Positions 4,166-41,760 of a stretch of DNA of 64,000 nt are shown here, one piece after another. This DNA comes from Candidatus Altimarinota bacterium (lineage in GTDB: Bacteria > Patescibacteriota > Gracilibacteria > UBA1369 > GCA-2718715). The stretch spans positions 672,001 through 736,000 of the forward strand of contig JBESAV010000001.1 of assembly GCA_041242255.1 (NCBI GenBank), read 5' to 3'. The notes under the pieces were generated by a model. It had not been told where the DNA came from. It saw only the letters and a list, made by a program, of their open reading frames with translations, and did no database searches. Position 1 is the stretch's first letter; every line of letters starts with the position of its first letter. Both the position numbers and the translations under genes were made by a program.

Positions 4166-5179
4166 CTATTCTTCGCTTAATACATCTTCTAAAACCTCAT
4201 CCAACTCGGCATGAGGTTTTTTATATTCCTTAGCTAATGCTAAACGAACCACATCTGCATAATCCAAATTAGCATCATCCTTCCTTAAATTAATAACAGA
4301 TTTAAGTTCAACATCACTCATCATTGAAAAAACTTTACTAGAATACGATAAACTCACCAATGGCTTGTTAAGCTTTAAAGCAGTTATACCTGCATGCAGT
4401 CTCTCTGCAATAACAAACTTACAATGACTAACATGCTCTAGAGCTTCTTCTAAATCATTTTGAGTATAACCAACTGTGTACTTTCTTTTAACCCCTTCAC
4501 TAAGTATTTCTGATGCAAACTCAGCATCTTCTTTTCCAAAAGACAAAACACATATCTCATTAAACTCAAGAACATCCTCAAGCTCAACCAAAAGGTTATT
4601 TACAACTTTTTTAAGCTGATTATTATCTACTAACCTATACGGTCGAAGATTTATTCCAATCATGTTACTAGTCACCTGCCTTGTTTCTTGTTTCAAATGC
4701 CACACCAAATCATTTACTCTTACAGACTTCTCCGGAAAATGCTCATCTATAAGCTTTTTAGAATAACTATCTCTTACTGAAACCTTATCAACCATACTCA
4801 AAAGAAATTTTACAACCCGATCAATTGAACTAAATGATTGACCAATCATTACAGTAGTTTTTTTAAAAATACTCGCAGCTACAATTATCTGTCCCCATAT
4901 CAATAAAGACATCTTTTCTTCAGGATTTAAAAGCCCACCCCCTCCAAAAACAACTACATCACATCGCTTCAATTCTTTGAAAAATTCAATCCACTTAAAC
5001 TTAAAAAAACTTCTAAAGCCAGCTGGTGGTATCCCAACTGAATCTTCAAATTTTCCAGGACAAGCAAGGACGTAATCAGCCCCGAGTTCATGTATTTGTT
5101 GAATACTTGATAACATCAAAAGATCATCTCCAACATTCCCAGCTCCATAATTTCCTACCAACAAAACTTTTTTCATCAC
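4166..5179 (-). CDS. Polysaccharide pyruvyl transferase, CsaB-like
   Basis: GNYGAGNVGDD, FGGGGLL, GQS, SVRD, RLHAGI, SYSSKV motifs. Confidence 0.88.
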   Translation of the reverse strand: MMKKVLLVGNYGAGNVGDDLLMLSSIQQIHELGADYVLACPGKFEDSVGIPPAGFRSFFKFKWIEFFKELKRCDVVVFGGGGLLNPEEKMSLLIWGQIIVAASIFKKTTVMIGQSFSSIDRVVKFLLSMVDKVSVRDSYSKKLIDEHFPEKSVRVNDLVWHLKQETRQVTSNMIGINLRPYRLVDNNQLKKVVNNLLVELEDVLEFNEICVLSFGKEDAEFASEILSEGVKRKYTVGYTQNDLEEALEHVSHCKFVIAERLHAGITALKLNKPLVSLSYSSKVFSMMSDVELKSVINLRKDDANLDYADVVRLALAKEYKKPHAELDEVLEDVLSEE

Positions 5180-35205: not shown

Positions 35206-36264
35206 ATGAGTAGCCAAAAACACGAGAAGACAAATCTAGCTGATGCAATACAACAATTATTTCAAGTACTAAATCCCAAAGAACAGAAAGTTATTAAAGG
35301 AAGGTACGGTTTTGATATTAAAAAATCTAAGAGAACACTTGAGTCAATTGGTGATGACCTAGGGATTACAAGAGAAAGAGTTAGGCAAATTCAAAAAGCA
35401 GCATTAAAAAAACTTCAAAGAGTTATTCACAGTAATAAGCTCCAAGCTACTATGGAGTACGTTGAACATTTCATAAAAGAGAATGATTACTTCATAACAG
35501 AATCAGATCTAATAAAAGGTCTTTCAGAAAAGATAAAACCATCAATCAAAAATATTGATTCACTTATTATTTTACTTGCAGACATAAATCCAGAAATTAC
35601 AAAGATTAAAAAAACCAAGAAGATTAGCAAGTCCTGGACAATCAAATCTAAGATCAATAGTAAAAATACAAAGCAAATCCTTAAAACAGGAACAAAAATC
35701 TTAAAAGCAGAAAAGAAAGCAATTACGCCTATACAATTCCTTACAGACGTACAGGAAGAACTTAAAAAACAAAAGGCTGGAGTTTACTCTAGAAGCACAT
35801 TAGCTAAAGTTTATTCTGCAAGTAGCATCATTAAAAAAGTACAAGAAGGTTATGGACTAACTAGCTGGAGATCAATCAAACCAAAAAGCATCAAAGATAA
35901 ATCAATCATTGTGTTTAAAAGACAAAATAAACCGTTACACTTCAGCCAAGTATGCGACCTGATTCATGATTATAAGTTTGATGCTAAAGAAGTTACTTTA
36001 CAAGCTGTACATAATGAATTGATCAGATATAACGACTTCGTACTTATTGGAAGAGGTATCTACGCATTAAAAGAATGGGGATTCAAAACAGGTACAGTTA
36101 AAGACATTATTCATGATGTTTTGAGCGAGAATGGTCCATTGAGCAAGGCTAAGATAATTGAAGAAGTACTTAAAGAGAGAAAAGTTAAAGTTGGAACGAT
36201 ATCTCTAAATCTACAAAAACACCCAGAATTTAAAAGAGTAGGAAGAGCAGTTTACTCTCTCTAA
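35206..36264 (+). CDS. Sigma70 region-4 HTH protein with C-terminal winged-helix (HARE-HTH/RpoE-delta-like) domains; not a full sigma factor
   Basis: TLESIGDDLGITRERVRQI; PLHF...VHNELI...FVLIGRGIYALKEWG; no region 2. Confidence 0.8.
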   Translation: MSSQKHEKTNLADAIQQLFQVLNPKEQKVIKGRYGFDIKKSKRTLESIGDDLGITRERVRQIQKAALKKLQRVIHSNKLQATMEYVEHFIKENDYFITESDLIKGLSEKIKPSIKNIDSLIILLADINPEITKIKKTKKISKSWTIKSKINSKNTKQILKTGTKILKAEKKAITPIQFLTDVQEELKKQKAGVYSRSTLAKVYSASSIIKKVQEGYGLTSWRSIKPKSIKDKSIIVFKRQNKPLHFSQVCDLIHDYKFDAKEVTLQAVHNELIRYNDFVLIGRGIYALKEWGFKTGTVKDIIHDVLSENGPLSKAKIIEEVLKERKVKVGTISLNLQKHPEFKRVGRAVYSL

Positions 36265-36306
36265 ATATAAGCTTATAATTGCAATAAGATTTTTTAGAGA
36301 AACCAA

Positions 36307-37887
36307 ATGAAAAAATTCATACTTAGCTCATTCTTGTTATTTGGAATGCTTATTTCAAGCTACCCTGTTTCAAATGCGCAAACAATTGACCAAATTTTCC
36401 AAGAATTCAGCTTAGATACAGCTCAAGAAGGAGTTTTATTTACCGAGATAATATCCCCTGAGTTCAATGATGTAGAGAGCCCAACAGTCTTCAAAGCAAA
36501 CCCACAGTTTAACGAAGAGAGATACGAAGATATTATTTATCAGTGGGAGTTTGGTGACGGTAACAGTGAAGTAGGTAAAGAGGTAGTTCACAGGTATGAT
36601 CAAGCTGGACTTTACGAAGTTACCTTAACTGTTGTAACAGACGACAACGAAACATCAATTACTCAAGATATATTCATTGCTGAGCAAACAGCTCTTTTGA
36701 TAACAGATAATACTCAAGACACTGATAAGATAACTAAGTTCGTGCGAAATGGTAATTCATCAAACTACTTTATAAAAATAGTTGAAAGTTTCGCCAGCCA
36801 ATCAGAGTTCTTATCTGAAGAGGTTCTTAGTAGAAAATTAATAAAGCTAGGAGAAGAGGTTAAAAACTACGATACAATTATCATTTGGTCAGACAACACA
36901 TCTCCTATAAACGCAATTGCTCGTTTTAATCAAAACTTTCAAGAGCAAAACTCAGACTCACAAGCAAATTTCAACAATAAACTTTTCCTAATCTTACAAA
37001 ACGAAGTAGGAAATATACAAAGAACACGTAGAATATTCCGACAAATTCAACCAGAAGAAGTAATCTTAATGCCAACAGCAGTTAGGCAGATCTTTTTAGA
37101 CACAAACACAACAAGTGAACTTAAGTCAGAGCTTCAAAACACTGGTATTGATCATCAGATCTTAGATGAGTATGAAACTAAGATAAGCCCCTTAAACTTT
37201 TTCTCTGTCTTTATCGACTACCTAGTTAACCAAGGAATACCAGATAACACAATCATCCTGATACTCTTACTTCCAGTTATTGCAACTATTATCGCTGTTT
37301 TCAAACAGATTATTGGCTTCAGTACAATGGGAATTTACATGCCATCAATCATTACAATGGCCTTCCTCATATTGGGATTAAAGTTTGGACTTATTACGTT
37401 CCTTCTAATTGTTGCTACTGGTCTAATAGCACATAAAGTATTTGATCCAATGAAACTGCTTTATGTACCAAAAATGGCATTAATTATTACAACAGTTTCC
37501 ATTGCTCTATTCGCACTTATAACTATAACAGTTTACTTCAAATTCTTTGCTATTGATTTTATTTCTCTTACGATTTTCCCAGTATTAGTAATGGGAACTT
37601 TAACTGAAAGATTTGCAAGATTAACGAGCACTAAAGGCTTCAAGGGGTCATTATTTATACTTATAGAAACATTACTAGTATGTATAATCACATATTTCCT
37701 AACAGGTGGAACTATTGATCTAATCTTTGCAAACTTCCAATTCACTGGAATTAGAAATCTTATTCTAAATCACCCCGAAATAATTTTCTTAATAATTATT
37801 TTAAACATATACCTAGGTAAATGGACTGGCCTACAAGCTACAGAAATACTTAAGTTCAGAAATATAATTAATGACCTAGAAGAATAA
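36307..37887 (+). CDS. PKD domain plus 7TM_transglut-type multi-pass membrane protein
   Basis: Signal peptide; YQWEFGDG..VVHRY..AGLYEVTLTV (PKD); LLLPVIATIIAVFKQIIG..GIYMP, LLYVPK, FPVLVM..TERF, GKWTGL. Confidence 0.85.
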   Translation: MKKFILSSFLLFGMLISSYPVSNAQTIDQIFQEFSLDTAQEGVLFTEIISPEFNDVESPTVFKANPQFNEERYEDIIYQWEFGDGNSEVGKEVVHRYDQAGLYEVTLTVVTDDNETSITQDIFIAEQTALLITDNTQDTDKITKFVRNGNSSNYFIKIVESFASQSEFLSEEVLSRKLIKLGEEVKNYDTIIIWSDNTSPINAIARFNQNFQEQNSDSQANFNNKLFLILQNEVGNIQRTRRIFRQIQPEEVILMPTAVRQIFLDTNTTSELKSELQNTGIDHQILDEYETKISPLNFFSVFIDYLVNQGIPDNTIILILLLPVIATIIAVFKQIIGFSTMGIYMPSIITMAFLILGLKFGLITFLLIVATGLIAHKVFDPMKLLYVPKMALIITTVSIALFALITITVYFKFFAIDFISLTIFPVLVMGTLTERFARLTSTKGFKGSLFILIETLLVCIITYFLTGGTIDLIFANFQFTGIRNLILNHPEIIFLIIILNIYLGKWTGLQATEILKFRNIINDLEE

Positions 37888-40235
37888 TGCTCAAATTTAA
37901 CAAAGGTATACTAGGTTTAAACGCAAGAAACCTTTTATACGTTAACAAATACAATCAAAAATCTGCCATTAAGTTTGCCAACAACAAACTTAAAACAAAG
38001 CACTTCTTATCTGCTCGTGGAATACCTGTGCCTAAATTATTCAAGGTTATTAAATCACATGAAGATTTAAACAATTTAGACTTTGGTAGTCTTCCTGGAA
38101 GCTTAGTCCTTAAACCAAACATGGGATCACAGGGTAAAGGAATACTTGTTTTCAAAGGACGAAGCGGTTCAGATTTCCACCATGTAAACGGAGAAACCTA
38201 CACCAAAGATGACTTAAAAAAACATATAACGGATATAATTGATGGTCGTTTTTCAATGGGAAATGTTCGTGATACTGCTTTCTTTGAACAGCTAATAATC
38301 AATCATAAATCCTTACAAAACTACACCTGGTCTGGATTACCAGACATCAGAGTTATTATGCATAATCTTGTTCCTGTAATGGCCATGTTACGCTTACCGA
38401 CAAAAGAGTCAGGAGGAAGAGCCAATCTATCTCAAGGTGCTTTAGGAATTGGATTAGATATCGCTACTGGAAAACCTACTCACATTAGTTACAAAAATCA
38501 CATCATTCAAGAAATACCAGAGTTCGGAAAATTCGATCCAAACTTCAAGGTACCATATTGGGATGAAATTCTAAACATATCTGCCAAGTCACAATACATA
38601 ACAAACCTTGGATTCCTAGGTTGCGATATAGCAATTGATAACAACAACGGTCCAATCCTCATTGAAATAAATGCTAGGCCAGGTACAAAGATTCAAATCG
38701 CAAATAAAGCTCCTCTACATAAGAGATTAAAACAAGTAAGTAACATAACTATAAAATCACCTGAAAAAGGTGTTCGTGTTGGAAAAGATCTGTTTGGTCG
38801 AAAAGAAGTAATAAATACAGGAAAATCATCTCAAAAAATTATCCACACAGAAGAGCATGTAGAAATGATCATCAACTCTAAAAAAATTAATCTAAAAGCA
38901 AAAGTTGATCTTAACCAAGAAAGAACAATCATCGATGAGAAATACAAGCCCGAAACAACAAGCAAAAAACATACAGTTAAACTAACCATAAACAACAAAC
39001 ATAAAGTTGTAATCGCACCACTTTACCAAAAAATCGAAGGTAACTATTCATGCATAATAGGATACAAAGACCTTCAAGGTTTCTTAATCAAACCTAGGAT
39101 AAAAGATCAATCTAAACCTCTTTCAACAGATAAACCAAAGAAAGAGACCCAAAAAGGATTTTACTACAAACCACAAATCGATTTTGGTCAGGTTGACCAT
39201 CAAATTTTCCAGATTATGAAACAGCTAAAGTTTCTATCGCTCCTAACACCGCTTAATCTAAAAGAAGAAATTTCTAAATTTAAAAAAGATCACTCATACA
39301 ATCCTCAGTTTGAATATAAAAATATCACTGAAACAACCATCCCTTTGTTAGACACTCTTGCAAACATAAAGATAGATGATAGTGAGTTAGGTAAAATATT
39401 TGATAAAAAGATCCAAGAGCTGAACACAACAATCCACGCTATTAATCACATTGGTACGTCTGAGTTCACTCATATCTCTGAAAAATTATATCCTCACCCA
39501 ACTCAAGAAGAGGTAAAAATTGCTGAGGTCCTACAAACTAACAAGAAAAAATACAAAACATCCTCAAAAGTCTATTCAGATAGAAAAGTGGCTAAGATAT
39601 TTTCAGATTTTCTTAAAAAATCTGGACTAAATAATTGGAAAGTTCAAATAAAAGAAAACATGATTGGAAGCTGCAGCGTCAACAAGTCCAATACAATTTT
39701 CATTAAGAAAGGAAGTAAATTTAATGAAAACAGAGTAAAAAAACTTATAGCTCATGAAATCGAAACCCATATATTCACAGCTGAAAATGGAAAAAAACAA
39801 CCCTACAAAATATTCCAATTCGGAACTGCAAACTTCCTAGAAACTCAAGAAGGTTTAGCTATATACAATCAAGAAAAAACTCTAGGATACGAAAGCAACC
39901 ACTACTTTGCCGCCATAAACTTAATAACCTGTGATATAGCCCTTAATAATAGTTTCACTGAAGCTTTTGCTAAGCTGAAAAGTCTAGGTATATCAGATCA
40001 GAAATGTATCAACTTTATTCTTAAAACCAAGAGGGGAGTAGGCGACACTACTCAAAAAGGTGGATATGCTAAGCAAGCTATCTACACCAGGGGTGCACTT
40101 ATGATAGATGATTTTGTAAAAAATGGAGGAAGCCTTTCTGAACTATACATAGGAAAAATATCCTTAGATATTCTAGAGGACTGCAAAAAAATCAAATCCC
40201 TAAATCCACCAATCTACGTACCAAGCTGGTATTAG
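37887..40235 (+). CDS. Fusion of an alpha-L-glutamate-ligase-like ATP-grasp domain, an inactive retropepsin-like domain and a DUF1704 (QEGLA/MATCAP-like) metallopeptidase
   Basis: GILGLNARN, KPNMGSQGKGI, PDIRVI, AMLRLPT..S.GRANL, GCDI, EINARPG; KAKVDLN...IIGYKDL; HEIETH, TQEGLA, KRG. Confidence 0.85.
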   Translation: MLKFNKGILGLNARNLLYVNKYNQKSAIKFANNKLKTKHFLSARGIPVPKLFKVIKSHEDLNNLDFGSLPGSLVLKPNMGSQGKGILVFKGRSGSDFHHVNGETYTKDDLKKHITDIIDGRFSMGNVRDTAFFEQLIINHKSLQNYTWSGLPDIRVIMHNLVPVMAMLRLPTKESGGRANLSQGALGIGLDIATGKPTHISYKNHIIQEIPEFGKFDPNFKVPYWDEILNISAKSQYITNLGFLGCDIAIDNNNGPILIEINARPGTKIQIANKAPLHKRLKQVSNITIKSPEKGVRVGKDLFGRKEVINTGKSSQKIIHTEEHVEMIINSKKINLKAKVDLNQERTIIDEKYKPETTSKKHTVKLTINNKHKVVIAPLYQKIEGNYSCIIGYKDLQGFLIKPRIKDQSKPLSTDKPKKETQKGFYYKPQIDFGQVDHQIFQIMKQLKFLSLLTPLNLKEEISKFKKDHSYNPQFEYKNITETTIPLLDTLANIKIDDSELGKIFDKKIQELNTTIHAINHIGTSEFTHISEKLYPHPTQEEVKIAEVLQTNKKKYKTSSKVYSDRKVAKIFSDFLKKSGLNNWKVQIKENMIGSCSVNKSNTIFIKKGSKFNENRVKKLIAHEIETHIFTAENGKKQPYKIFQFGTANFLETQEGLAIYNQEKTLGYESNHYFAAINLITCDIALNNSFTEAFAKLKSLGISDQKCINFILKTKRGVGDTTQKGGYAKQAIYTRGALMIDDFVKNGGSLSELYIGKISLDILEDCKKIKSLNPPIYVPSWY

Positions 40236-41401
40236 GATTGCCAAGTAGTGCTTACAAGGTTTTCTTTACGATCAGGCTTATAACCGTTTTCTACATACCT
40301 CATTACTAGTAATGTCATATCATCTTTCTGAACTGTATTATCTACAAAAGAAATTACATCCCTTGATACACCTTCAAATACTTTCAGCGAAGAACCTAAA
40401 CTAGCATTTCTATTTAACGACTCCTTAAGCCTTTCTAATCCATAAAGCTCTCCTGAATCATTAACAGCTTCAGTAATACCATCAGAATATAGAAGAACAA
40501 TATCCTGGTCGTTAAGGATAATTTGTTTTTCCTTAGCTATCTTAGAGATGTCTGGTGACATAGCTAAGGCAATACCTCCAGTCACAATAGCTTCTGTCAC
40601 ACCTTCTTTTGCTCTATAAATCAATATATGTTCATGACCAGCACCAGTGTAGAACATTTCTCTAGTCTTAGGATTCCACCTAAAGAAAACAGAAGTCATA
40701 AACAAAGCAGCATTTACTCTTGGTTTCAATTCTTTATTAATAGATACCGCTAGGTCTAATGTGTTATCTACATTTGGCAAAAACAAATCAAACAAAGTAT
40801 TCATCACCATCATTACTAGACCAGCACCAGCTCCATGCCCAGTTACATCACCAACATATATATAATATTCATCACCTTTTTGAACTATATCAAAACTATC
40901 TCCACCCAGCTCATCAGCTGATCTAGTTTTAGCAACAGTATCTAGATACTCAATCACTGGTATTTCTTTAGGTAAAACACTTCTTTGTATATCAGCTGCA
41001 ATATTTAAATCGCTAGACATTCGTGAACCTTCCTTCAAAAAGTAAGAGATATTTTCAATATTCTTAGTGACATCATTAAAAAAATAAGCAAACAAACCAA
41101 ATTCATCCTTACTATCAATACTAATTTTTTGATATGGCTTTGATGATATAACTGATGCTACTTGCTTAACAATTTCATCCATCTTTCTTACAAACTTCAC
41201 CCTCACAAAAAACACTCCTACAATAAAGGAAAATAAAACTGACCCAACAAGCAAAACATTTTTATTTAATTCCAGTCCAAGCATGTAATACTGGAAACTC
41301 TCTTCAACTAGATTCATCACTAATCCAAAAGGCAGGAAAGAGACTAAACTTACAAAGAAAAATTTCCAAAACAATCTATATCTAACAGGTTGAATATTCA
41401 T
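40232..41401 (-). CDS. RsbU/SpoIIE-family PP2C phosphatase with 2 TM helices and a HAMP domain
   Basis: DEFGLFA HAMP, AADIQRSVLP, GGDSFD, GDVTGHG, AGH, YSDGITEA, DDMT. Confidence 0.92.
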   Translation of the reverse strand: MNIQPVRYRLFWKFFFVSLVSFLPFGLVMNLVEESFQYYMLGLELNKNVLLVGSVLFSFIVGVFFVRVKFVRKMDEIVKQVASVISSKPYQKISIDSKDEFGLFAYFFNDVTKNIENISYFLKEGSRMSSDLNIAADIQRSVLPKEIPVIEYLDTVAKTRSADELGGDSFDIVQKGDEYYIYVGDVTGHGAGAGLVMMVMNTLFDLFLPNVDNTLDLAVSINKELKPRVNAALFMTSVFFRWNPKTREMFYTGAGHEHILIYRAKEGVTEAIVTGGIALAMSPDISKIAKEKQIILNDQDIVLLYSDGITEAVNDSGELYGLERLKESLNRNASLGSSLKVFEGVSRDVISFVDNTVQKDDMTLLVMRYVENGYKPDRKENLVSTTWQS

Positions 41402-41760
41402 TAGCTTACATGTTTAAGTACTTCTTCCATTGAATCATAAACCTCAACTATTTGACTTAGACCAACGACATCAAAAACATCTTTAACTTGAGGCTGTGCA
41501 TTTACAATGTGCAACCGTTTTCCCATAGCTTCCATTTTATAAAACATAGATACAAAAAAACCAACACCTTCTGAATTCACAAAGTCAAAATACTTTAAAT
41601 CAAATATCAAATAATCATCCTCAAACGCTTCAATAAAGTTATTAATAACCTCTCTAACATCTTTAATGTTCGATTTATCTAAAGCTCCTTTAAACTCAAT
41701 AACGATGTACTTGTCAGAGTCCAAAACTTTGTCTAAAACATTTAAATCTAATCTTGTCAT
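41401..41760 (-). CDS. STAS-domain anti-sigma-factor antagonist (RsbV/SpoIIAA-like)
   Basis: GALD, FDL..FDFVNSEGVG with the phospho-acceptor Ser, VKDVFDVVGL. Confidence 0.88.
   Translation of the reverse strand: MTRLDLNVLDKVLDSDKYIVIEFKGALDKSNIKDVREVINNFIEAFEDDYLIFDLKYFDFVNSEGVGFFVSMFYKMEAMGKRLHIVNAQPQVKDVFDVVGLSQIVEVYDSMEEVLKHVS

Follow-up and report, generated by a model that had tools for sequence, protein, structure and literature searches.

A patescibacterial membrane protein/ligase/peptidase locus related to rloABC, with a degenerate retropepsin domain and a clade-specific C-terminal Glu-Glu tail

A 64,000-nucleotide stretch of the genome of Candidatus Altimarinota bacterium (GenBank assembly GCA_041242255.1, contig JBESAV010000001.1, positions 672,001 to 736,000 of the forward strand; here called the window) contains two overlapping genes, one for a seven-transmembrane-helix (7TM) protein with an extracytoplasmic PKD domain and one for an enzyme that joins an ATP-grasp ligase domain to peptidase-like domains. 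Our results indicate that the two genes form a conserved unit related to the rloABC system of Pseudomonas, that a retropepsin-like domain within the enzyme lacks its catalytic motif, and that the membrane protein ends in two glutamate residues (EE) that are conserved in its clade. The Rlo-type system is already known; what is added here is the variant found in bacteria of the candidate phyla radiation (CPR), with its apparently dead retropepsin and its clade-specific EE tail. As a tentative reading, which we regard as a real possibility but somewhat short of probable, the locus would be the CPR form of an Rlo-type membrane protein/ligase/peptidase system, in which the C-terminal helix of the membrane protein docks the enzyme and the EE tail is an acceptor that is extended and trimmed.

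The two genes meet at ...GAATAATGCTC, where the stop codon TAA (37885 to 37887) and the start codon ATG (37887 to 37889) share one nucleotide, an overlap that the initial annotation had already pointed out. The source genome is a single contig of 1.0 Mb and carries one copy of the 7TM domain (7TM_transglut, PF14402). We compared by script the positions of PF14402 and of the ligase family ATPgrasp_ST in a sample of 401 genomes of the phylum. PF14402 was present in 129 of them, in a single copy in 128 (130 matches in total), and a strong ATPgrasp_ST match lay directly downstream on the same strand for 123 of the 130 matches, with a median gap of 70 bp between the two domains. The neighborhood conservation on which the initial annotation had staked its pairing of the two genes is therefore found in 122 of the 129 genomes. 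Of the seven exceptions, several are close to contig ends or have a ligase that is located on a different contig, and one match falls below the threshold; in two genomes (G273 and G314) the ligase is found on a different contig although the 7TM match is not near a contig end. A single strong ligase of this type (G242) was without a 7TM gene. Both gene ends could be placed in 121 loci, and the genes overlap in 49 of these and are 0 to 20 bp apart in 40 (89 together). Because these counts are joined by the same gene order in proteobacterial rlo loci, we conclude that the linkage of the 7TM protein and the ligase is ancient and nearly universal.

The membrane protein begins with MKKFILSSFLLFGMLISSYPVSNA, followed by Q, which reads as a Sec signal peptide. 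Pfam assigned the protein to 7TM_transglut (E value of 1.4e-24; 87.4 bits, with the cut-off at 25; amino acids [aa] 314 to 520) and to the PKD families PKD_4 (PF18911; E value of 1.5e-12; aa 75 to 117) and PF00801 (E value of 1.7e-9). An AlphaFold2 (AF2) model built on 115 homologs (predicted local distance difference test [pLDDT] of 88.6, predicted template modeling score [pTM] of 0.80) consists of a signal-peptide helix, a beta-sandwich at 46 to 125, an alpha/beta domain at 127 to 290, membrane helices at 295 to 505, and a C-terminal helix at 511 to 525. Pfam and the model agree with the initial annotation, which had read a signal peptide, a PKD domain, a further domain, and a 7TM domain in this order and had named PF14402 and PKD as the profiles to expect. 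The PKD domain resembles that of ColG (2y72; Foldseek E value of 2.4e-6 and TMt of 0.80). It was the only part of the full-length model to be matched by Foldseek, which gave no solved homolog of the 7TM or the alpha/beta domain; for the latter, Pfam at an E value of up to 10 gave nothing beyond noise, and an ESM Atlas search gave no usable match. The NCBIfam model for RloB matched only at positions 311 to 508 (the last 200), with 53.9 bits against a cut-off of 900. A periplasmic, inactive transglutaminase domain of the RloB type was not found with Pfam, NCBIfam, AF2, or Foldseek, and the ectodomain consists of the PKD and alpha/beta domains instead. The topology is probably N-out and C-in, and the C-terminal helix would lie in the cytoplasm, because a cleavable signal peptide is followed by seven helices, as the sequence, the name of the family, and the model suggest. 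Proteins of this kind are already annotated publicly as "PKD domain-containing," and homologs at 36 to 41% identity carry the source names Peregrinibacteria, Gracilibacteria, and Patescibacteria group.

Among the phylum relatives, 80 of 128 have the alpha/beta domain, and 75 of 80 long forms have both PKD and alpha/beta domains. This ectodomain is the standard long form of the phylum, and the proposal of the initial annotation that the ectodomain had been swapped for a PKD domain in this locus does not hold. The 7TM open reading frames (ORFs) adjacent to a ligase include 48, of 123, that are no longer than 330 aa and have no ectodomain. The ectodomain is thus an add-on to a core of 7TM domain and ligase, and sensing by the ectodomain cannot be the core function, because these 48 ORFs keep their ligase.

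In the alignments, the most conserved part of the family is a C-terminal motif predicted to be cytoplasmic, G504-x3-G508-[LY]-[RK]...R516-F517, which is shared with Proteobacteria; F517 is present in all 129 rows of the alignment, two proteobacterial RloB proteins among them. Within the membrane helices, G337, G342, P346, and G361 are conserved from Proteobacteria to CPR. The protein of the window continues beyond the motif to a terminal EE (C-terminal helix, WTGLQATEILKFRNIINDLEE), which the initial annotation had not noted, and so do 114 of its 115 homologs (32 to 81% identity), which have 2 to 5 terminal Glu residues after a variable residue. Such an end is rare in the source genome, where only 4 of 858 ORFs of at least 100 aa end in EE: the 7TM protein, a protein named by eye as DnaK, one of 402 aa, and a polysaccharide pyruvyl transferase (PF04230; positions 4166 to 5179, minus strand). 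Phylum-wide, EE tails occur in 19 of the 127 7TM rows, and the other tails are basic or mixed after the shared RF(R) motif. In a tree of the 7TM domain, built without the last 8 residues, EE rows stand at four places, namely one supported clade of 17 rows (16 with EE and one long-branch row) and three separate rows, and the distribution takes 5 changes, with at least 3 of these forced.

The enzyme has no signal peptide and is predicted to be cytoplasmic. Its N-terminal part matches ATPgrasp_ST (PF14397; E value of 5.7e-67, well above the cut-off) and TIGR02291, the alpha-L-glutamate-ligase-like family (E value of 4.1e-79; 265.8 bits, under the curated 314.2). The tubulin-tyrosine ligase (TTL) family PF03133 matches only locally, at aa 243 to 281 (E value of 1.7e-5; 24.7 bits, with the cut-off at 20.1), in what appears to be the shared ATP-grasp core. 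Residues K76, D247, E260, N262, and R264, which we take to be catalytic, are invariant in 84 homologs. The C-terminal part matches the MATCAP family PF08014 (E value of 3e-45; 155.2 bits against a cut-off of 27) and TIGR02421 (E value of 6.3e-47; 160.6 bits, under the equivalog cut-off of 338.65). H623, E624, H628, Q654, E655, and G656 are invariant in the same 84 homologs, and with these motifs present the domain is predicted to be an intact zinc carboxypeptidase. Homologs of the enzyme are already annotated publicly as "tyrosine/phenylalanine carboxypeptidase domain-containing."

The linker between the ligase and MATCAP domains gave only noise in Pfam at an E value of up to 10 and nothing with phmmer against Protein Data Bank (PDB) sequences, and we resolved it with a profile built from homologs (enzyme residues 305 to 445) and a fold search. 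In nearly all sampled loci, the profile detects a stretch that follows the ATP-grasp domain and that in most lineages reads AK(I/V)DTGA ... IIGRRDLKxFL(I/V)DP. When 10 pieces from relatives were tested against PF05618, the RimB/RloA retropepsin family, 7 matched above the cut-off; the three that failed all come from EE-tailed loci (L085, L011, and L066), and PF05618 has no match anywhere in the source genome. A model of the domain of the window is a beta-barrel (pLDDT of 82.3) whose best solved folds are RloA of Pseudomonas fluorescens (9g58; E value of 1.1e-4), Lpg0085, and RloA2, followed by Ddi1 and retroviral proteases. From sequence motifs and model, the typical CPR ligase gene is evidently a fusion of RloC and RloA, and in the source lineage the retropepsin without its catalytic motif is predicted to be catalytically dead, with the MATCAP domain behind it. 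No secreted, active counterpart of RloA was found: the retropepsin fold sits inside the cytoplasmic enzyme, with DLN in place of DTG. The new peptidase suspected in the initial annotation is therefore present as the MATCAP domain, but the pepsin-like peptidase has not been replaced outright and persists behind the ligase in degenerate form. A different arrangement is seen in the CPR family f26 (for example, L125, L108, and L112), in which the 7TM protein has a short length of about 225 aa, the ligase retains a retropepsin with an intact DTG and an insertion that is long, and MATCAP is encoded separately, some 5.2 kb off on the other strand, in nearly all genomes.

The occurrence of the EE tail is restricted to certain clades and follows both that of MATCAP and the decay of the retropepsin, over few independent events. 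All 19 genomes with an EE tail have a MATCAP domain: 14 have it fused in the adjacent ligase gene, 2 have it in a separate downstream gene, 1 has it nearby on the other strand, and 2 have it fused to a ligase on another contig. A MATCAP domain lies within 12 kb in 32 of the 104 non-EE rows with an adjacent ligase. Among the 116 rows that could be scored, the retropepsin DTG has been lost in 14 of 16 EE rows versus 3 of 100 non-EE rows. The positions of the features in the window are collected in Table 1.

Table 1. Features of the 7TM protein/ligase locus (positions in the window)
Feature	Position	Strand	Basis
Membrane-partner gene, 526 aa	36307-37887	+	ORF call, table 11
Signal peptide, aa 1-24 (...VSNA, then Q)	36307-36378	+	Read from sequence; helix 2-17 in AF2 model
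PKD Ig-like domain, aa 46-125	36442-36681	+	Pfam PKD_4; Foldseek
Extracytoplasmic alpha/beta domain, aa 127-290	36685-37176	+	AF2 beta-alpha-beta pattern, pLDDT ~90
7TM_transglut membrane domain, aa 295-505	37189-37821	+	PF14402, RloB-model match, AF2 helices, hydropathy
Predicted cytoplasmic C-terminal helix with family-wide motif and terminal EE	37822-37884	+	Alignments
TAATG stop/start overlap of both genes	37885-37889	+	Read from sequence
Three-domain enzyme gene (predicted cytoplasmic), 782 aa	37887-40235	+	ORF call, table 11
ATP-grasp ligase domain, aa 14-285, RloC/alpha-L-glutamate-ligase-like	37926-38741	+	PF14397, TIGR02291
Degenerate retropepsin-like domain, aa 305-441	38799-39209	+	Homolog profile, fold search
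AKVDLN in place of AK(I/V)DTG	38898-38915	+	Alignment
MATCAP/DUF1704-type metallocarboxypeptidase domain, aa 465-781	39279-40229	+	PF08014, TIGR02421
HEIETH	39753-39770	+	MATCAP HExxxH motif
QEGLA	39846-39860	+	MATCAP metal motif
Flanking genes: dnaE; DHH/DHHA2 phosphoesterase; sigma-70 region 4/HARE-HTH protein; SpoIIE-type phosphatase and STAS partner; MFS protein; tsf; rpsB			

The flanking genes are uninformative for the function of the pair. The gene upstream (positions 35206 to 36264, plus strand) ends 42 bp before the membrane-protein gene and encodes a 352-aa protein with an N-terminal sigma-70 region 4 domain and a HARE-HTH domain near its C terminus; it has a counterpart in the flank of only one other sampled locus (L106), the flanks compared being short. 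On the other side, a SpoIIE/PP2C phosphatase gene (40232 to 41401, minus strand) and a gene for a STAS-domain protein (41401 to 41760, minus strand) form a convergent partner-switching pair, and the end of the phosphatase gene overlaps that of the ligase-peptidase gene by 4 nt. A promoter and terminator scan found 25 promoter sites against a mean of 30.1 in shuffled sequence, which is no excess; one site, TTTACT-17-TATAAT at 36251 to 36279, lies just 5' of the membrane-protein gene. The sequencing runs with the locus include no listed RNA run, and the DNA runs are marine metagenomes (two studies), together with small shares in fish-gut runs.

Outside the window, two further regions of the genome are of note. 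A second, loosely linked pair at about 76.6 to 80.7 kb of the genome consists of a stand-alone MATCAP-like protein of 395 aa (PF08014 E value of 7.7e-18; L003:1453-2640, minus strand) and a RimK-like ATP-grasp protein of 301 aa (L005:1261-2166, minus strand), with typA/bipA between them on the opposite strand and no 7TM gene there. The ORF for ribosomal protein S6, at about 319.8 to 320.3 kb (L133:1498-2049, plus strand), has 183 aa and, by eye, runs on into a C-terminal region resembling S18, so that it looks like a fusion of S6 with S18. S6 is the classic target of RimK, but here it ends in ...ARHMALLPFVR and has no free acidic Glu-Glu C terminus, and it is not a candidate substrate of the ligase in this genome.

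A system of this type was reportedly predicted by Iyer et al. in 2009 from amidoligase gene neighborhoods. The initial annotation was right to liken the locus to the proteobacterial system of 7TM, ATP-grasp, and pepsin-like proteins, which has since been named rloABC and was described in mBio in 2025 for Pseudomonas aeruginosa and P. fluorescens with the first genetics (PMC12239564). There, the RloA peptidase is periplasmic, and the system has a role in tolerating hypo-osmotic stress, in forming biofilms, and in cell shape; in a triple rloA protease mutant, the defects are suppressed when rloB or rloC is lost, so that the three genes act in one pathway (PMC12239564). The CPR locus shares with rloABC a 7TM_transglut protein directly upstream of an ATP-grasp protein resembling the TIGR02291 type, a retropepsin-like domain to which RloA is the nearest among solved folds, and the C-terminal G-x3-G-[LY]-[RK]...R-F motif. 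The same gene order occurs in an Aeromonas caviae record and, with an ATGA overlap, in a plasmid of Legionella adelaidensis. This 54-kb plasmid carries a complete rloA-rloB-rloC set adjoining two genes for C1-family peptidases (L134:2616-5544). There are also differences. The ectodomain here is PKD plus alpha/beta, whereas that of Rlo is an inactive transglutaminase; the CPR retropepsin is fused to the cytoplasmic ligase, here without DTG, whereas that of Rlo is secreted; the locus adds a MATCAP carboxypeptidase; and the membrane protein of the source genome ends in EE, whereas the two proteobacterial RloB proteins end in ...AKARS and ...GKDK.

Two other systems resemble the locus in part. As described in PMC11957791, RimK adds glutamates to the C terminus of S6 and also makes free poly-alpha-L-glutamate, and RimB, a retropepsin, removes the S6 glutamates and cuts the polyglutamate made by RimK. 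The likeness lies in a cytoplasmic ATP-grasp glutamate ligase and a retropepsin-type peptidase that act on an acidic C-terminal tail, and RimBK hybrids show that ligase-retropepsin fusions exist, but RimB is N-terminal in these hybrids, whereas the source enzyme has the ligase before the retropepsin (PMC11957791). The partner here is moreover a membrane protein, and the predicted active peptidase is a zinc carboxypeptidase, not an aspartic endopeptidase. MATCAP-family proteins, in turn, are HExxxH carboxypeptidases that process the acidic tails of tubulin and deglutamylate them (PMC10499314). The TTL/MATCAP cycle of tubulin also combines an ATP-grasp ligase with a carboxypeptidase of this family (PMC10499314), and the proposed target here has a C terminus ending in ...EE. 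In the CPR enzyme, however, a single polypeptide holds both predicted activities, the substrate proposed is a 7TM membrane protein and not tubulin, and the ligase is RimK/RloC-like with only the local TTL match.

Taken together, these features raise the possibility of the following mechanism. The PKD and alpha/beta domains would lie outside, the RloB-like 7TM domain would span the membrane, and the amphipathic helix ending in ...EE would lie inside, where it would dock the ligase-peptidase. The terminal Glu-Glu, in the clade that has it, would be the acceptor to which the ligase adds amino acids, most likely glutamate, and the MATCAP domain, which would have taken over from the dead retropepsin, would trim the extension. 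This would amount to a write/erase cycle on the tail of a membrane protein, with a logic like that of RimK/RimB on S6 and of TTL/MATCAP on tubulin. The topology, the docking, the use of the tail as a substrate, and the amino acid added are the parts of this scheme that we infer. A complex prediction with the full enzyme and residues 310 to 526 of the membrane protein gave values of the interface score ipSAE of 0.49, 0.49, and 0.45, against 0.01 for the best of 3 controls, with a partner pLDDT of at least 71, a contact agreement between runs of at least 83%, and a tool verdict of "weak support." Of 80 solved complexes, 58 reach the mark of this test, as do 2 of 110 mismatches, but passes at an ipSAE of 0.60 or below come from only 7 of the 80 solved complexes and from both passing mismatches; a pass in this range would be more often wrong than right unless the pairing is likely beforehand, and the score gives no position for the tail. 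The contact between 7TM protein and ATP-grasp domain foreseen in the initial annotation thus passed weakly as a score, but interface contacts were not obtained.

Several observations weigh against a tail that is extended and trimmed. Non-EE tails are found in 108 of the 127 phylum rows and in both proteobacterial RloB proteins, and because the ligase is retained there, an EE acceptor cannot be required for what the ligase did ancestrally. A fused MATCAP domain goes with non-EE tails in seven genomes (family f47, G024, and G379), and f47 retains DTG. The contrast between EE tails and loss of DTG comes down to 3 independent pairs on supported branches, a number at which a sign test cannot reach significance. 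The conserved Gly and Pro residues inside the helices suggest that the 7TM domain is more than an anchor, and, by analogy with Pseudomonas, the periplasmic location of RloA would fit an exported product better than a cytoplasmic tail (PMC12239564). Such a product is the core of another explanation, which we consider unlikely: the ligase would produce a free acidic peptide or polymer or place a tag on some other molecule, the 7TM domain would carry the product across the membrane or present it there, the peptidases would edit it, and EE would serve for docking or priming. Deletions of rloB or rloC rescue the triple mutant without periplasmic RloA, which suggests that a product of RloB and RloC is processed outside the cytoplasm (PMC12239564), and RimK provides a precedent for free poly-alpha-L-glutamate (PMC11957791). 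The conservation of the helix Gly and Pro residues from Proteobacteria to CPR and the many lineages, indeed most, that keep the ligase without an EE tail would also be accommodated. However, both CPR peptidase domains are fused to a ligase that has no signal peptide and is predicted to be cytoplasmic, which would place the trimming inside; the 7TM domain matches no transporter family in Pfam and no solved transporter fold in Foldseek; and the strictness of EE (114 of 115) exceeds the needs of docking.

In line with the contact control of ligase and peptidase considered by the initial annotation, the ectodomain could instead be a sensor for a surface or host cue that the 7TM domain relays, switching the balance of ligase and peptidase on a third-party cytoplasmic protein. 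An extracytoplasmic and conserved ectodomain (75 of 80 long forms), the frequency of PKD domains in surface and adhesive proteins among the Foldseek matches, and the gene overlap that ties the enzyme to the membrane protein all speak for this, but it appears quite unlikely to us: among the 123 7TM ORFs next to a ligase, 48 retain it although they have no ectodomain, and no third-party substrate is evident, since S6 has no free acidic end and the other EE-ending ORFs of at least 100 aa are those for DnaK (by eye), the 402-aa protein, and the pyruvyl transferase. The tubulin product of MATCAP ends in ...EE. Together with the co-occurrence of EE tails and MATCAP in 19 of 19 genomes, this would allow the tail to be a pseudo-substrate that sits in the active site of MATCAP or of the ligase, inhibits it or mimics its product, and keeps the enzyme switched off at the membrane, itself unmodified. 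We regard this as improbable; the number of encoded terminal Glu residues varies from 2 to 5 or more, which is more like an acceptor that drifts in length than a fixed inhibitor. These explanations and the extension and trimming of the tail are not fully exclusive, and modification of the tail could gate transport.

A wider version of the write/erase scheme, which we find somewhat doubtful, is a bacterial "tail code." In it, a PKD and alpha/beta sensor would be joined to a 7TM domain with an ...EE tail, and one combined writer and eraser would reversibly lengthen and trim the tail and so set the state of the protein. It would be a counterpart, possibly a relative, of the TTL/MATCAP cycle and would have arisen when MATCAP displaced the polyglutamate-cutting retropepsin of an Rlo/Rim-type system. 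In a search of the literature available to us, no article turned up that deals with the CPR form, the dead retropepsin in it, or the EE tail, and none that names both Patescibacteria and MATCAP. The terms PF14402, 7TM_transglut, TIGR02291, and TIGR02421 were likewise absent from the papers that the search listed, and RloB was found only in the Rlo paper and in a paper on the Menshen antiphage system.

Only the Pseudomonas member of the 7TM/ATP-grasp/retropepsin family has genetics. With the CPR form, the question of what these systems act on could be tested concretely and at low cost, as it is a unit of two genes with a candidate substrate in the C terminus of the partner and a peptidase whose specificity class is known. 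Should the tail prove unmodified, the locus is still a clean case of the replacement of a peptidase within a conserved operon. If it is modified, this would be the first case of a bacterial membrane protein with a reversibly tailed C terminus, would assign a function to a module that roughly one in three of the sampled Patescibacteria genomes carry (129 of 401), and would place the pairing of MATCAP with a TTL-like ligase, known from tubulin, in bacteria.

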